The notes beneath the pieces were generated by a model. The model did no database searches, was not told where the DNA came from, and saw only the letters and a list, made by a program, of their open reading frames with translations. A program made the translations under genes and the position numbers. From Archangium gephyra (GTDB lineage: Bacteria > Armatimonadota > Fimbriimonadia > Fimbriimonadales > Fimbriimonadaceae), in assembly GCA_943371495.1 (NCBI GenBank), contig CALRVA020000001.1, positions 1 to 45,182 on the forward strand: a stretch of DNA of 45,182 bases. Direction: 5' to 3'. Shown here piece after piece: positions 9,108 through 26,503 of the stretch. Numbering within the stretch: position 1 is the stretch's first letter; each line of letters begins with the position of its first letter.

Positions 9108-10829
9108 TTAACTTTCTACGTCTTCGGTGGGCGCAAGTCTTGCGGGGCGAACGAGGTGACCTTCTTGATCGAAGATGGCGACGAGGGCGGGCACCATCTC
9201 TTCCTTCTGTCTCCCGATTTTGAGAAGCAAGCGGAAGGGGCCGTGGCCAGCCAGGGCAATTTCACAGGGGTGATCGGGCGCGACATCCTGCCCCGCTTCG
9301 TCATTGAGCCAGCAACGGGCCGGAACGGGCGATTCGATGCGCAATCGGTATTGCCGTCCTGCGGGCATTGTCGCCTGGGAAAATACGTACATGACCCCCG
9401 GTGCCCCTCGGAATAGGGGCTCAAGATTGAGTTCGGGTCCGTCGGGCGAGAACGCCTGCCATGCAACGGGAAGCTCCGCGCGGCCCGTATCCTTGAGCAG
9501 AGGATCATAGGCTTTCTCAGGGGCGTAGGCTTGCGTCATTCCCGCGCCGTTCTGGTTGGGATAAGGGCCAATGACCGACCACGTGCCCGTGGCCAGCAGG
9601 GGCAAGCTGAGTCGCAAACCCTCCGTGCGGAGTTCGACTACTTGGTCGCTTTCTACACCCTTGGGGGCCTGGATTTTGGCCTTCGTGGTCCAGGAAGCGC
9701 CGGGGGCGACGACTTCCGATTTGGCATCGGAACTCACCTCAAGTCCGGCACCAACCACCCATTCGGGTGAGATCCGTATGGGCGTGGATTCTCGATTGAT
9801 GAGGGTGAGTTCGACCTCGGCGTGGCGACCTTCTTGGAAAATCGGACCCTGCGGATAGTGAACGTGAAGCTGGAAGGGGCCAACCTCCGCGTAGGCAGAG
9901 TGCTTCTGGAGGTCTAGGGCGCGGGCCTCGGGCAGGCCGCCGTCAAAGAGCTCCGCAAAGGCGGCCAGGGTGGACGGAGGATCAATATCTTGCAGAAACC
10001 CCGTGGCGACATAGGTTTGCCCCAGGGGTCCCGTCCATTCGGGTTCCAACGGACCGTAGAGACCGGCACCTAAGGCCGCGGCAATCGCAGCGGTGTCGCT
10101 CGCGGCGTGGCCCATGCTGGCCGCCAGAATCATGGCGCGCGACGCTTGCTCTTGGCATCCCGAGAGGGCGGCAAGAATGTGCAACAACGCGCGGCTGGCC
10201 GGACTGAATTCTTCTGGAATGAGGCTGGGAACGCTGGAAGGCTGGGAAATCCCTGCCCCGAGAACCTCCGGGACCTTGGCAAGAGCCGGGTGGCCCGGGG
10301 GAACGAACTTGGGGATGAGGCCGAGCAAGGCCCCCCAGCTGCTGTGCTCACTCGCGGCCGTGGCGGCCGCGGCGGCGACCCAGCCGGCCACCCAGAGGGC
10401 GTCTCCGGCGTGGTCCACGCTCATATCCGTGGCCGCCCAGACGCTGGCCAGCTCGGGCTTCCCGGCGCCGCGCATCCCCCAGAAGAGCGCACGGGCCAGG
10501 CCGGTAGCCCGGCCGCTGGCGGGGTTTCCAAATTGTCCACTGAGGGGCAAACCTAAGCCGGCGGCCAAGTTGGCGAGGGCATAGGCATCTCCGCGTTCGG
10601 CCGAGTTCCAGTGCGCACGGTAAGTGCCGCTGAGATTGGTGTGGGGGCGGGATTGCCGCAGGTGATAGGCCCACACCACGGCTAAATCTTGGTGGCCCGC
10701 CGGGGCCATGCGGAAGGGCACAGGTTCGTATCCCGTAAGCGGAACAAACTCCTGGCGCCGTACGTGCGGGGCTCCCATTGTGGCTCCCGCAAGGGAAGCC
10801 ATGACCATGGCCACACGACGTTCGCTCAT
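9108..10829 (-). CDS. ADP-ribosylglycohydrolase-like protein with C-terminal Ig-like/beta-sandwich domains
   Basis: SLAGATMGAP, DMSVDHAGD and GHAASDTAAIAAALGAG resemble the ARH fold; WSVIGPYPN-type C-terminal domain. Confidence 0.6.
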   Translation of the reverse strand: MSERRVAMVMASLAGATMGAPHVRRQEFVPLTGYEPVPFRMAPAGHQDLAVVWAYHLRQSRPHTNLSGTYRAHWNSAERGDAYALANLAAGLGLPLSGQFGNPASGRATGLARALFWGMRGAGKPELASVWAATDMSVDHAGDALWVAGWVAAAAATAASEHSSWGALLGLIPKFVPPGHPALAKVPEVLGAGISQPSSVPSLIPEEFSPASRALLHILAALSGCQEQASRAMILAASMGHAASDTAAIAAALGAGLYGPLEPEWTGPLGQTYVATGFLQDIDPPSTLAAFAELFDGGLPEARALDLQKHSAYAEVGPFQLHVHYPQGPIFQEGRHAEVELTLINRESTPIRISPEWVVGAGLEVSSDAKSEVVAPGASWTTKAKIQAPKGVESDQVVELRTEGLRLSLPLLATGTWSVIGPYPNQNGAGMTQAYAPEKAYDPLLKDTGRAELPVAWQAFSPDGPELNLEPLFRGAPGVMYVFSQATMPAGRQYRLRIESPVPARCWLNDEAGQDVAPDHPCEIALAGHGPFRLLLKIGRQKEEMVPALVAIFDQEGHLVRPARLAPTEDVES

Positions 10830-21852: not shown

Positions 21853-22779
21853 ATGAGCGAAGACATTAAGGAAGAGAGCTGGGCGACTCAAGGTTCGGTC
21901 GAGTTCTTGACAAATCGCGATGAATTGCTTCGGGCTTATGACAGGGAAAAGGAAAAAAACGTCGATCGTCCGATAAAGTTATCGCACGGAAATGTTGGAG
22001 AAGCGGATTTTCGCCAATGGCTCTCGACCTTTTTACCAAAGAGATTCGGTGTAACCTCTGGGTATATCATTTCTCAAGGCAGGCAGGCTGGCAATAAGTT
22101 ACATCATTTCGATGTAATAATTTATGATCAAATTGAGGCTCCTGTTTTATGGGTGCAAGGCAGCAGTGATCAATCGGAAAACGGAAAGCGGAAGGCCATA
22201 CCCGCAGAGTATGTTCTCTGTGTTATCGAAGTGAAGTCGACCTTTTCAAAGGAGAACGTGTGTGATGCAATAGCGCAGCTTCGTAAGCTTGAGCCATTGA
22301 TGAAAGGACAGAATCAGGGCGATTCCACATACCCTGAGTACTTACCCAGTAACTTTCGATGCATGGTTGTTTTCTTTGAAATCCGAAAAAAGGAAGCGAA
22401 AAGCATAAGTGCATTGGAAGAGCTAGTCGCAGAAACTAGCCTTAGAGGATTTGTTGGGGGCATTATTCTGCGTGGTGAAGGTGCTCCTGCGAATTCGAGC
22501 GGACGTATCTACTTCTTGGAAATGCACAGGAGTCATAGCCATTATGATGCGATTTTTGAACGTTTGGACGATCAGCATGGCATGATAGGAGTGCTTTCAA
22601 GTACTGGTGTCGTGTCTACAACTGGAGAAATATCTCGGCATGGCTTCATAAACTGGGGCGACTTTTGCTTTGCGCAATTCGCTCATGATTTAGTCGCCAT
22701 ATGCCGTGGAAGGTTCAAAGTTGGCAGGCTTTCCAGCTGGCATGGATTGGACTTTCGAGCAAACAATACCGAGAACTAA
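21853..22779 (+). CDS. DUF6602/NucC-like PD-(D/E)XK nuclease; AT-richer insert
   Basis: GNVGEADFRQWLSTFLPKRFGV, FDVIIYD, IPAEYVLCVIEVKS; GAGG SD upstream; clearly lower GC than flanks. Confidence 0.75.
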   Translation: MSEDIKEESWATQGSVEFLTNRDELLRAYDREKEKNVDRPIKLSHGNVGEADFRQWLSTFLPKRFGVTSGYIISQGRQAGNKLHHFDVIIYDQIEAPVLWVQGSSDQSENGKRKAIPAEYVLCVIEVKSTFSKENVCDAIAQLRKLEPLMKGQNQGDSTYPEYLPSNFRCMVVFFEIRKKEAKSISALEELVAETSLRGFVGGIILRGEGAPANSSGRIYFLEMHRSHSHYDAIFERLDDQHGMIGVLSSTGVVSTTGEISRHGFINWGDFCFAQFAHDLVAICRGRFKVGRLSSWHGLDFRANNTEN

Positions 22780-22862: not shown

Positions 22863-24320
22863 TTACTTTGTATTTCGGGCAATAAACCCCTCCGCTGCCG
22901 CCAAGATCCGGTCGCGGCGCGTGGGTTCCAGTCGCTCGTAACCCCTTACGGCCTGGCTCATGCGCTGGTTCTGGGCAAAGAACTCCCGGTTCCGGGCAAT
23001 CGTCCGCCAATACAGCCCGTCCCACACATCGCACCACGGCCCGGCGGGCTCCCCGGACATCCGCCGGATGTACGCCGACCCGGAGAAGTACGGTTTGGTG
23101 GCAAACGCCCCCGCCGACGCGCACTGCGACATCCCGAACACGTTCGGCCCCATCACCCATTCGCTGGCGTCCACAAACATCTCCATGAAGTAGCGGTAGA
23201 CCTCCTCGGGGTCCACCTCGCACATAAACATCACCGCGCCGATGACCATCAGCCGCTCGATGTGGTGGCACCAGCCGTGGTCGCGGGCGCGGGCCAGGCT
23301 CCGGTCCAGCGGGGGGAGGCCGGTGGCGGCATTTTCCCACGCCGGGGTGAGGCGACGATGATGCGGGAAGGTGCGCTGCACAGCCGGTTCTTCGCGGGCG
23401 ATGCCCCGCACAAACTCGCGCCAGCCGATGATTTGGCGGATGAACCCTTCCAGCGAATTGAGCGGCACCGGGCGGCGGGCGTGCCGCGCGAGGGTGGCCT
23501 CGATGACCCGCGCCGGAGTGAGCAAGCCAATGTTGAGCATGGGGGTGAGCAGGCTGTGGAACACCGTGCGCTCCTGCGGGGGGAGGGCGTCTTCGTAGTC
23601 GCCAAAGAGGTCGAGACGGTGTTCCAGGAAGTCGGCCAGCCAGTCTTCGGCTTGGGCGGGGGTGACGGGGAAGGCGAAGGTGGCGGGGTCCCCGGCGGCC
23701 ACAGGGAAGTGGTTCTTGACGAGCGTGATGACTTCGCGGGTGATGGGGGTGAGGGCCGGGGGCATCACGGCCGGGGGCTGGAGATGCTTGGGGAGGGGCT
23801 TGCGGTTCTCGGTGTCGTAGCTCCACTGGCCGCCCAGGGGTTCTTGGTGGTCATCCAGCAGGATGCCCAGGCGCCGCCGCTGCCGCTTGTAGAAGTCGGC
23901 CATCAGCAGGCGCTTGTGGTGGGCGCGGTAGTTCTGCCACTCCTCGGCGGGGGTCAGGAACATCGGGTTGGGATGCTCCTTGAGCGTGATGCACTCGGTT
24001 TGCGCCCAGGTGCGGAGCTGGCGGGCGAAGAAGGCGTCGGCGGGCTCGAAGGTATGGACTTCTTGGGCTTGGCTGGATTGGAGGGTTTGGGCGAGCGCCT
24101 GGGGGATGGAGGTGCGGGCTTCAAGCGGGAAGTAGTGGACGCGGCCCGGGTGGCGGGCGGCGAATTCGCGCATGGCGGCGAAGGTGAGAACGAGCTTGTG
24201 GGCGTGGTAGCAGTAGTGCCGGGCGAGGTCGAGGTCTTCCACCATCACCACCGGGCCGGGGGGCAGCGCCGAGATGTCGGCAAAGAGCTGATCGCCCAGG
24301 ATGAGGTTGACGGCACCCAC
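22863..24320 (-). CDS. Cryptochrome/photolyase family protein (PhrB/CryB-like bacterial (6-4) photolyase class)
   Basis: LILGDQL, HAHKLVL, GGQWSYDTENR, FHSLLTPMLNIGLL, EGFIRQIIGWRE, HHIERLM, WVMGPNV, TKPY. Confidence 0.92.
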   Translation of the reverse strand: MGAVNLILGDQLFADISALPPGPVVMVEDLDLARHYCYHAHKLVLTFAAMREFAARHPGRVHYFPLEARTSIPQALAQTLQSSQAQEVHTFEPADAFFARQLRTWAQTECITLKEHPNPMFLTPAEEWQNYRAHHKRLLMADFYKRQRRRLGILLDDHQEPLGGQWSYDTENRKPLPKHLQPPAVMPPALTPITREVITLVKNHFPVAAGDPATFAFPVTPAQAEDWLADFLEHRLDLFGDYEDALPPQERTVFHSLLTPMLNIGLLTPARVIEATLARHARRPVPLNSLEGFIRQIIGWREFVRGIAREEPAVQRTFPHHRRLTPAWENAATGLPPLDRSLARARDHGWCHHIERLMVIGAVMFMCEVDPEEVYRYFMEMFVDASEWVMGPNVFGMSQCASAGAFATKPYFSGSAYIRRMSGEPAGPWCDVWDGLYWRTIARNREFFAQNQRMSQAVRGYERLEPTRRDRILAAAEGFIARNTK

Positions 24321-24358
24321 GCCTGGGGTCTACGGGACGGGGGGTGGGGGCGTCGCGG
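24180..24358. repeat. Direct repeat copy A (photolyase upstream region plus first ~47 codons)
   Basis: Core 24234-24333 matches 26379-26478 at 87/100 nt ungapped (manual alignment); similarity extends on both sides. Confidence 0.9.
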
Positions 24359-24390: not shown

Positions 24391-25290
24391 CTAGCCACCA
24401 TCAGTTGTAAACGTACTATTTACCATTGTTGTATATGTTCCCAAGAAAGGATTCTTCACATCATCTGGCAATGGCGATTGCGTTACATCTGAAATGAATT
24501 GCTGATAACTCATGAACAAAGCTCGACCTGTGGAAAACGGGATCGGTCCTGGTTGCTTTCCCGGAACCTCTACGAGTTCAATCAAGGCAACTTCCCAGCC
24601 TTCGTACCACTCCATGCCATTCGGTACTGTTCTCAAAACATAGTCAAACAGGGTCGGCCCCATAACTAGTGCGAAGCCTCCGCCGAACCTGCTTGCTAGG
24701 GGAGCCTTTCTAAATACTTGCCGCAGTTGACGCTTCCATGCATTGTCTGGAATCAATCCTACTTTCGGAAAGCTTTTCCTAAGATACTCATTTGTTCGCG
24801 CCGTTGACGCTGTCCATTGATCAACGTGTTTCGAAAGAGTGCCTGTGTTGCTTGTCTCGCCGCCACCCTGAATCTCTACAATAGCCATCTGTCGACCAAT
24901 GATCGCGTTTGAATTGACGCGCATAACATAGTCCAAGTACACCTTTCCGCCGCCAACTTTTTGACCAACTTGACGTCTGAAGCCAACATCCTTATCATCA
25001 GCGTCAGGGAATAGGCAACTCGCCACTTGACCTAAGATATTGAGATGGTCCGATGTCAATACATTAGACTTGGCTGGCACGAGCCTGTCTGAGCAAACAA
25101 CGAATAGTTGGTCACTATCTGATCTAACGCTACAGACTGGAGGATATGATTTCTGCCCGACTAGCTTTGAACATGGTCCACCCATAAACGGACACGTAGG
25201 GGCTATTGTCGGATTGAGGACTGAAGGCCTAATCTGAGGAGCGTCTACATCCGTTCTTTGACCAAGGTATTCAGCAATTCCGACTGGCAT
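24391..25290 (-). CDS. Type II restriction endonuclease, NotI-like family
   Basis: GIAEYLG start; Cys cluster CPFMGGPCSK...VCSV...VVCSDRL; catalytic-like YLDYV...IVEIQ; WKRQLRQ; adjacent to an m5C methyltransferase. Confidence 0.78.
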   Translation of the reverse strand: MPVGIAEYLGQRTDVDAPQIRPSVLNPTIAPTCPFMGGPCSKLVGQKSYPPVCSVRSDSDQLFVVCSDRLVPAKSNVLTSDHLNILGQVASCLFPDADDKDVGFRRQVGQKVGGGKVYLDYVMRVNSNAIIGRQMAIVEIQGGGETSNTGTLSKHVDQWTASTARTNEYLRKSFPKVGLIPDNAWKRQLRQVFRKAPLASRFGGGFALVMGPTLFDYVLRTVPNGMEWYEGWEVALIELVEVPGKQPGPIPFSTGRALFMSYQQFISDVTQSPLPDDVKNPFLGTYTTMVNSTFTTDGG

Positions 25291-26204
25291 AGCACTCTCG
25301 CGCCGCCTACTATACCTGACGACTCCAGTATTCGTAGCGCCAGCCAGTTGGCTACGTCCACATTCACGGCGTTGCCGAGGGCTCTGAATCTACGTCCGTC
25401 CATCCTGTCGGGAATCCCTGCAGAATCTCGTACTCCGAAGCCGTCATTCGTCGCACATACAACATCGGAGGACCCTCTGCTATCCAATGTGTATGTTTCC
25501 CCGTCGCATCTGTAGCCTTTTGCTTGAGGCCCAGCGGTCGGCTTGCGTCCGATTGTGGCATGCTGGATAACGTATACATCTGCGTCACGATCGCTGACCG
25601 TAGGTCTTCTGGCAGCGTGCGCCCCAGGGAGTCGTGTCTGTCTAACCACTTCTCCAACTGCTGAGTCGTCAAAAAGTACTCTAGAGGCGCAGCTGGTTCC
25701 AAGACTTGCGACAAGGAACGTACGACGACGTCTTTGGGGTGTTCCGTAGTATTTGCTGTCCAGAACTCGCCATGCAGTGCAATACCCGAGTTCATCCAAG
25801 GTTGAGAGTACGATTCGGAAATCTTCCCCACCGTGGGAATTAAGCAACCCGACCACATTCTCGATGACAAGCCATTTTGGTCGTACAATCGAAGCAAGTC
25901 CTGCAAACTTGTGAAAGAGTCCACTTCTGCCACCTTCTAATCCTAACCTTTTACCTTGATTTGCCAAGCTCAGATCTTGGCATGGAAAACCACCGCACCA
26001 GACGTCAGCGTATGGAATATCGTCTGGATGAACCTCGTTAATATCACCAACCAATGGAATGCTTGGCCAGTGCTTCCGCAACACGCTTTGGCAGAACGAG
26101 TCGCGTTCGCACTGGAACACAACTTCATACCCAGCTCGCTCGAACCCAAGATCGAATCCACCAATTCCTGCAAAAAAAGAGGCTACCTTCACCGTATTCC
26201 CCAA
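25245..26204 (-). CDS. DNA (cytosine-5) methyltransferase, alpha polypeptide lacking motif IX
   Basis: Motif I FAGIGG, IV GFPCQD, VI IENV, VIII PQRRRR, TRD YTLDS, X RALGNAV. No R-x-T-x-x-E...QGFP motif IX in this frame. TTG start. Confidence 0.93.
   Translation of the reverse strand: MGNTVKVASFFAGIGGFDLGFERAGYEVVFQCERDSFCQSVLRKHWPSIPLVGDINEVHPDDIPYADVWCGGFPCQDLSLANQGKRLGLEGGRSGLFHKFAGLASIVRPKWLVIENVVGLLNSHGGEDFRIVLSTLDELGYCTAWRVLDSKYYGTPQRRRRTFLVASLGTSCASRVLFDDSAVGEVVRQTRLPGAHAARRPTVSDRDADVYVIQHATIGRKPTAGPQAKGYRCDGETYTLDSRGSSDVVCATNDGFGVRDSAGIPDRMDGRRFRALGNAVNVDVANWLALRILESSGIVGGARVLCQSELLNTLVKERM
25364..25933 (-). CDS. Methyltransferase beta polypeptide encoded in an alternative frame within the MTase gene; carries motif IX
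   Basis: 189 stop-free codons in AT-richer DNA; ends VRRMTASEYEILQGFPTGWT (motif IX); SLSQVLE...YFLT motif; GTG start with AGGA 7 nt upstream. Confidence 0.85.
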   Translation of the reverse strand: MAEVDSFTSLQDLLRLYDQNGLSSRMWSGCLIPTVGKISESYSQPWMNSGIALHGEFWTANTTEHPKDVVVRSLSQVLEPAAPLEYFLTTQQLEKWLDRHDSLGRTLPEDLRSAIVTQMYTLSSMPQSDASRPLGLKQKATDATGKHTHWIAEGPPMLYVRRMTASEYEILQGFPTGWTDVDSEPSATP

Positions 26205-26309
26205 CAGTGTGACCTATACAGACGTCTAGTTGCAACCGTTTGTTCCAAGATTTTTCAGTACATACCGATGGACTAGATTAACTTGCGGGTTACTGGTCCT
26301 AGGACAGTG

Positions 26310-26465
26310 CTAGGCAGAGAAGGTGCGGACGAACTTGTTCGGGCAGTACCGGTACCGATGGTCGCGGGCGAACTCAAAGTCTTCCACCATCACCGCCAGG
26401 CCGATGGGCAACACCGAGATGTCGGCAAAAAGCTGATCGCCCTGGATGGAACTGGCGGCACCCAC
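26310..26465 (-). pseudogene. Truncated, diverged copy of the photolyase 5' end
   Basis: Translates MGAASSIQGDQLFADISVLPIGLAVMVEDFEFARDHRYRYCPNKFVRTFSA*, versus MGAVNLILGDQLFADISALPPGPVVMVEDLDLARHYCYHAHKLVLTFAA for the intact gene. Confidence 0.88.
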
Positions 26466-26503
26466 GCCTGGGGTCTACCTGGCGGGGGGTCGGGGCGTCG
26501 CGG
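26319..26503. repeat. Direct repeat copy B
   Basis: Diverged copy of 24180-24358, including an identical CGGCACCCACGCCTGGGGTCTAC that spans the start codon and putative -10. Confidence 0.9.

Follow-up and report, generated by a model that had tools for sequence, protein, structure and literature searches.

A C5 methyltransferase encoded in two reading frames was reportedly shown in E. coli in the 1990s, by Lee, Kam and Shaw in 1995, and M.EaeI is likewise a two-chain enzyme. Tn5252 is also reported to carry a two-frame methyltransferase, which the literature searched did not confirm. For M.EcoHK31I, an E. coli enzyme with the specificity YGGCCR (PMC2836561, PMC3404938), the available sections of PMC2836561 describe both chains as needed for activity and as complementing each other from two plasmids, and those of both papers credit beta with motif IX only. 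M.AquI (CYCGRG) is described in the available text of PMC3404938 as a natural two-polypeptide C5 methyltransferase with one split, in the variable region. Here we analysed a stretch of 45,182 nt, called the window throughout, in which two overlapping frames on the minus strand probably make up a methyltransferase of this kind.

Two interleaved reading frames

The elements of the two frames, in window coordinates, are as follows.

25245..26204, minus strand: alpha, a 319-aa C5 methyltransferase by its sequence motifs, with a TTG start
25364..25933, minus strand: beta, 570 nt in the +1 frame relative to alpha and nested wholly within it, 180-189 aa depending on start choice
25320..25397, minus strand: motif X region, alpha frame
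25388..25462, minus strand: motif IX, LYVRR...LQGFP..WT, beta frame, residues 158-182, near the C-terminal end of beta
25455..25574, minus strand: target-recognition segment, alpha frame, residues about 211-250, overlying a variable spacer of beta
25565..25714, minus strand: beta block 2, L74-S-Q-V-L-E...YFL...helices to S123, delimited by conservation, profile match and model helices
25736..25798, minus strand: beta block 1, W46-x-x-S-G...G55...E64-H-P, overprinting alpha residues 136-157 (motifs VII-VIII)
25941..25944, minus strand: AGGA, a possible ribosome-binding site 7 nt ahead of the GTG at 25933

The motif residues of alpha are FFAGIGG at 10 (motif I), PCQ at 74 (IV), ENV at 115 (VI), QRRRR at 157 (VIII) and GNAV at 277 (X), and its Pfam DNA_methylase match is confined to residues 6-168. 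Motifs I-VIII, the target-recognition segment and X are in frame, without motif IX or a post-VIII linker, and a layout with ten motifs in one frame was not found at the alpha/beta locus. We take the segment to be the target-recognition domain (TRD) from its position and the general anatomy of C5 methyltransferases, which also underlies the motif numbering. The DNA of motif IX is placed between the recognition segment and motif X of alpha. Beta had no match in Pfam or NCBIfam, and its motif IX matched that of M.HaeIII weakly (E 0.12). An earlier sequence-only reading had described a 319-aa methyltransferase with motifs I-VIII and X lacking motif IX, and a nested 189-aa frame carrying motif IX just ahead of motif X with about 570 bp double-coding; motifs and Pfam coverage bear out the former, and the coordinates agree with the latter.

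When alpha codons 91-280 were recoded synonymously 20,000 times, the +1 frame never stayed open with either codon pool (about 8 stops on average), so the open frame is not a product of chance. We also considered whether two compensating indel errors had moved motif IX out of the main frame, which would have undone the observation. Apart from the low depth of the likely source contig (7.5), nothing was found in favour of such errors. Contigs of runs X2, X3 and X4, which come from three studies distinct from that of the possible source X1, together span all of beta with no break (X2 25057-25791, X4 25706-25921 and X2 25855-26226), no indel was seen in these independent runs, and the layout is shared by 45 other loci in many phyla and by an E. 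coli locus, which leaves assembly error a negligible probability. Within the overlap, the low-depth X2-X4 contigs carry four substitutions: the three over the recognition segment leave the alpha protein unchanged, and the one in motif IX leaves beta unchanged. They fit an alternating-frame constraint, as weak evidence.

Beta has three in-frame start candidates, GTG 25933, GTG 25924 and TTG 25906, the last at the position aligned with the ATG of M.EcoHK31I beta. The start is not conserved at one site: of 40 loci, 22 have ATG or TTG where the window has TTG 25906, and 26 have GTG where it has GTG 25924. The AGGA proposed earlier for the first GTG does lie 7 nt upstream, while the choice of that GTG as the start is uncertain among the three codons. 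A sigma-70-like match within alpha (25967-25940, 7 nt before the GTG) was rejected as being at chance level (2 found, 1.7 expected).

Orthology with M.EcoHK31I and the predicted restriction cassette

A DNA search of 5,426 E. coli genomes with a relative, L025, as query found an EcoHK31I-like system in 81, always chromosomal. The locus in E. coli S43 (L470) encodes a 309-aa alpha and a nested 176-aa beta at the same +1 offset as in the window, and RefSeq annotates alpha alone there; gene callers do overlook beta, as had been proposed. Compared by eye with the M.EcoHK31I primers in the PMC2836561 supplement, this locus matched the beta start and delta-65 primers exactly and the alpha end primers with one mismatch each, and codon 12 of its nuclease gene is AGA, agreeing with the EcoHK31I listing in the available part of PMC6456624. 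The E. coli cassette (L470:2974-4831) sits amid integrase fragments and IS elements and adjoins SIR2-family and ATP-binding genes.

The window and S43 chains align gap-free, with 62% identity over 288 residues for alpha and 50% over 165 residues for beta; their nucleases are 34% identical (E 6e-47). The top ESM Atlas match of beta was a cluster of 104 members named 'EaeI methyltransferase beta subunit family protein' (score 0.96). From these identities, the primer and AGA matches and the cluster name, the window locus is, on sequence comparison, an orthologue of M.EcoHK31I, an already studied system. The assignment to the M.EcoHK31I type made in the sequence-only reading is thereby confirmed. 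The case is less isolated than that reading implied: members of the family occur in many phyla, and the ESM Atlas has a named cluster for beta. Because the recognition segment of the window alpha is nearly identical to that of the M.EcoHK31I allele, the window enzyme is predicted to have YGGCCR specificity. YGGCCR was not clearly avoided in the genome (observed/expected 0.76, 0.91, 1.04 and 1.04), which fits a recent arrival and gives no support for the specificity. Other palindromes are strongly under-represented in this genome (CCGCGG 0.27, GGGCCC 0.33, ATCGAT 0.38, TTTAAA 0.42, GTCGAC 0.48), which may reflect other past or present restriction systems.

The methyltransferase is part of a cassette with these further features.

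24391..25290, minus strand: predicted restriction endonuclease, 299 aa, in tandem with alpha and overlapping its end by 46 nt
24206..24358, no strand assigned: 153-nt direct repeat, copy 1, the 5' end of an intact photolyase-related gene; left cassette border
26351..26503, no strand assigned: 153-nt direct repeat, copy 2, 82% identical to copy 1; right cassette border

With a putative cognate endonuclease gene adjacent, the locus would qualify as a type II restriction-modification system. The 299-aa nuclease had no Pfam, PHROG or NCBIfam match, no significant PDB sequence match and no plasmid match; a few of its 544 relatives are named NotI family or restriction endonuclease. The cassette has 50% GC against about 60-65% in the genome region, lies about 500 nt from a tRNA-Leu, and was not found in the 30 relatives searched; in three congeners (G001, G002, G003) the same slot is filled by other genes. 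It was probably acquired recently, in a variable slot. That slot (L242-L245) lies between a DUF6508 gene and the photolyase-related gene, and in both the window and congener G002 the 5' end of the photolyase-related gene is duplicated, with low-GC cargo, different in the two, enclosed by the copies. The window's cassette showed no integrase gene. The opposite end of the photolyase-related gene is immediately adjoined by a second low-GC gene (DUF6602, 21853-22779, plus strand).

Alternating constraint and the proposed contribution of beta

Of 113 candidates, 42 were relatives of beta (30-63% identity), and scans with the beta alignment, each taking the best 80, gave at least 240 loci. Among the matches listed, 45 loci scored above 200 bits and share the window layout, with the window itself as a 46th; by record title they belong to Armatimonadota, Bacillota, Actinomycetota, Pseudomonadota, Cyanobacteria, Chloroflexota, Bacteroidota and Spirochaetota, with one archaeal assembly (L032). 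The window repeats the E. coli design, and with it that exact system extends to many phyla. A related nuclease gene lies beside 43 of the 46 listed loci (convergent 38, tandem 3, divergent 2) and was not found at 3. The alpha frame was broken upstream at one locus, L007, the sole such case among the 45.

Selection was assessed on the window and 39 of the 45 loci (40 members), leaving out the broken L007, the near-duplicates L019, L020 and L023, L088 with insertions, and L011, which was missed by the pattern. Across alpha codons 92-272 the +1 frame has no stop in any member, compared with about 5% stops per codon upstream (codons 1-80) and 6-8% in the +2 frame over the overlap region. Third-position difference at four-fold sites was 0.71 ahead of the overlap and 0.73 past the beta stop; in between, the values were 0.48 at the beta start, 0.27 for alpha 141-200 (the beta module), 0.60 for 201-245 (the recognition segment) and 0.335 for 246-280 (motif IX). 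The conserved openness and reduced synonymous variation suggested earlier as a check were thus both seen.

Constraint passes from one frame to the other. Beta drifts along alpha 214-247, a stretch in which alpha hardly varies, whereas along alpha 177-212 and 248-269 it is beta that is fixed and alpha that for the most part drifts; at motifs VII-VIII both frames are constrained. The two frames form a mosaic in which a conserved element in one overlies a mostly loose spacer in the other, except at VII-VIII, and the locus is a clean natural case of interlocked frames under alternating constraint. Invariant positions of beta are W46, G50, G55, E64, L74, V77, F87, L88 and R99; residues 1-45 and 125-157 are variable, and over residues 46-123 synonymous change in alpha is suppressed. 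The suggestion that the ~150 N-terminal residues of beta show no evident function, and could be regulatory, is not supported: residues 46-123 are under selection and only about the first 45 are loose.

Beta residues 69-101 align with the in-frame segment that follows motif VIII in one-chain enzymes. A beta-module profile made from 128 +1-frame segments gives matches in the main frame of ordinary enzymes a short way past motif VIII (for example 20.6 bits at L252). Of 187 enzymes picked by their main frame alone, 17 had the module in frame 0 and 27 had it in +1, with no enzyme having both, at thresholds of 8 and 12 bits chosen after the first profile scores were seen. In hhalign comparisons with a profile of enzymes in which the +1 frame is closed (76 in all), both the linker and motif IX of beta aligned (probability 96.9); the master row was the best-scoring enzyme, which favours the match. 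The linker-containing core without IX gave a probability of 70 (E 4e-5), so that the linker homology, taken alone, is moderate.

In single-chain models, the large domain of alpha superposes on M.HhaI (rmsd 1.6 over 165 columns) and residues 181-278 are of low confidence and disordered, though low confidence from a 40-row alignment need not mean that alpha is disordered. Beta is modelled with helices at 74-77, 90-102, 109-124 and 165-172, without a structural match in the PDB. Deletions of M.EcoHK31I beta, as given in the available sections of PMC2836561, lower protection from delta-37 on, with a significant drop between delta-65 and delta-70, and those past W37 keep some activity in cells. Delta-37 starts at W37, which aligns with window W46, and delta-65 to delta-70 remove LSQVLE residue by residue, corresponding to window residues 74-79. 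Since deletions past W37 retain some activity, block 1 helps without being essential. We infer that the beta module likely has a structural role beside motif IX, a second role that would explain the published deletion endpoints.

Our preferred reading, which we consider very probable, is that two separately started chains assemble into one EcoHK31I-type enzyme predicted to methylate YGGCCR. Ribosomes would start at the alpha TTG and, internally, at the beta start near motif V. Alpha would fold the catalytic domain and contribute the recognition segment and motif X, with its small domain unfolded in the absence of beta; beta would bring the pieces that alpha lacks, motif IX and the post-VIII linker together with the helices of residues 74-123, and would probably dock on alpha through its W46-E64 block. 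For the window locus we infer that beta is started internally, that the chains assemble and methylate YGGCCR, and that the neighbouring nuclease restricts. If such a gene were recoded or synthesised with only the annotated protein as a guide, beta would probably be lost and the enzyme inactive.

The order of the DNA, recognition segment, then IX, then X, is the normal one, as it would be if programmed frameshifting took a single chain into +1 for motif IX and back again. We regard this double frameshift, raised as an alternative in the sequence-only reading, as very unlikely. The invariant beta stretches W46-E64 and L74-L88 overlie alpha 136-178, that is, motifs VII-VIII and the following strand, and one chain cannot hold both; including the linker together with IX would need four frame switches, and the M.EcoHK31I orthologue works from two plasmids according to the available text of PMC2836561. 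There could instead be two chains of which only the motif IX of beta matters, the rest being an open spacer or regulatory leader, as the variability of beta 1-45 and 125-157 would allow and as the portions of PMC2836561 and PMC3404938 that name only IX in beta might suggest. Residues 46-123 nevertheless combine invariant positions with suppressed synonymous change, and activity drops as the deletions described in the available part of PMC2836561 reach LSQVLE. Moreover, motifs IX and X both lie in alpha at 147 of 241 beta-selected loci among the matches listed, and the +1 ORF is conserved there without IX, so we give little credence to a role for motif IX only.

More weight is due to the reading that the layout is inherited while the window copy is inactive or of another specificity, which we still consider unlikely. 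YGGCCR is not clearly avoided in the genome, the window deviates at a few near-invariant alpha positions (e.g. V118 and C233), and its nuclease is only 34% identical and in the less common tandem (3 of 46) rather than convergent (38 of 46) orientation. Against this, every catalytic motif is intact, as are the two frames and the nuclease gene, the recognition segment hardly differs from that of the E. coli allele, and near-identical copies occur in runs of other studies.

The wider dual-coded clade and known systems

The sole other C5 methyltransferase of the genome (G000:C43:9124-10038, minus strand; L246, L249) is 45% identical to alpha and has a nested +1 frame (9222-9884, minus strand) with linker and motif IX and a different recognition segment. 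A divergent HNH-like nuclease gene (C43:10216-11256) lies beside it in a low-GC patch. We assessed the +1 frame more widely from 40 codons before to 45 codons after motif VIII. Residues 1-110 of alpha served as query for a viral set of 80 loci, which parsing and the removal of exact duplicates reduced to 71. In this set, +1 was open in 69 of 71 enzymes against 8.9 expected from synonymous shuffles, and +2 in 2; with many close kin, and a query that favours the window's clade, this count speaks for the clade rather than for all phage enzymes. Across samples of three bacterial phyla, +1 was open in 17 of 116 enzymes (5.8 expected), two of the 116 being from the window's own genome, and closed in 99.

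Layouts in the clade differ. Besides loci with IX and X in alpha, there are loci with IX in beta and others in which alpha ends right after VIII and the remainder is in +1. In many of the viral loci L370-L409, alpha stops within a few codons of VIII and +1 continues for 150-350 codons, this long frame carrying motif X and a motif IX-like segment. Within L037-L240, loci with IX and X in the main frame (e.g. L173, L195, L063) have a conserved ORF of ~140-200 codons in +1, the end of which falls shortly past the linker module (PHROG 16143). In a FastTree phylogeny of motifs I-VIII (209 rows), 92 of 95 rows labelled as dual-coded fell on one side of a 105-row split (support 0.78), and 11 of the other 13 rows on that side were also +1-open. 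The short methyltransferase L319 (G089:C9), whose linker module in +1 is divergent, was placed outside the main dual-coded group. The window's group (0.84) clusters with enzymes retaining IX in alpha (0.97), and motif IX has therefore changed frame at least once.

We think it probable, with less assurance than for the window locus itself, that M.EcoHK31I, rather than being an oddity, is the only member studied so far of a large clade, carried mostly by phages, whose enzymes all depend on an unannotated +1 partner over motifs VI-VIII. The W-x-x-S-G docking block, with the post-VIII linker in one branch, would be what is constant in this partner, and IX, the recognition segment and X would have shifted frames more than once. 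If so, a great many annotated 'DNA cytosine methyltransferases' would be half-enzymes, and among same-strand overlaps of prokaryotes and their viruses that of the clade would be one of the most deeply conserved. We found no paper on such a clade in the literature searched, which lacks most subscription journals, and the available main text of two frameshift and overlap surveys (PMC3711429, PMC8788219) does not mention a two-frame C5 family.

Among known systems, M.HhaI and M.HaeIII resemble the window enzyme in that the large domain of alpha superposes and the linker and IX of beta are like their in-frame segments, but they have all elements in one frame. PHROG 16143 (139 aa, 'DNA methyltransferase') matches beta 24-93 (E 1.4e-5) and five tested +1 ORFs of related loci; lacking motif IX, it is the counterpart of the shorter partner found where alpha retains IX. 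The small chain of M.AquI holds both IX and X, an arrangement not found in the window, where X is kept in alpha and the chains interleave. Likeness to M.EaeI is a matter of an automatic cluster name rather than of comparison with the EaeI sequence. M.EcoHK31I is like the window in having beta nested in another frame of alpha, motifs I-VIII, the TRD and X in alpha, IX in beta, and a related nuclease gene adjoining. The two differ in that the nuclease gene is tandem in the window and convergent in E. coli, and in that the window beta may start up to 9 codons earlier, with no ATG at the aligned start. Unlike that of M.EcoHK31I, the window host is probably non-enterobacterial, and the closest matches of its nuclease are labelled Armatimonadota.
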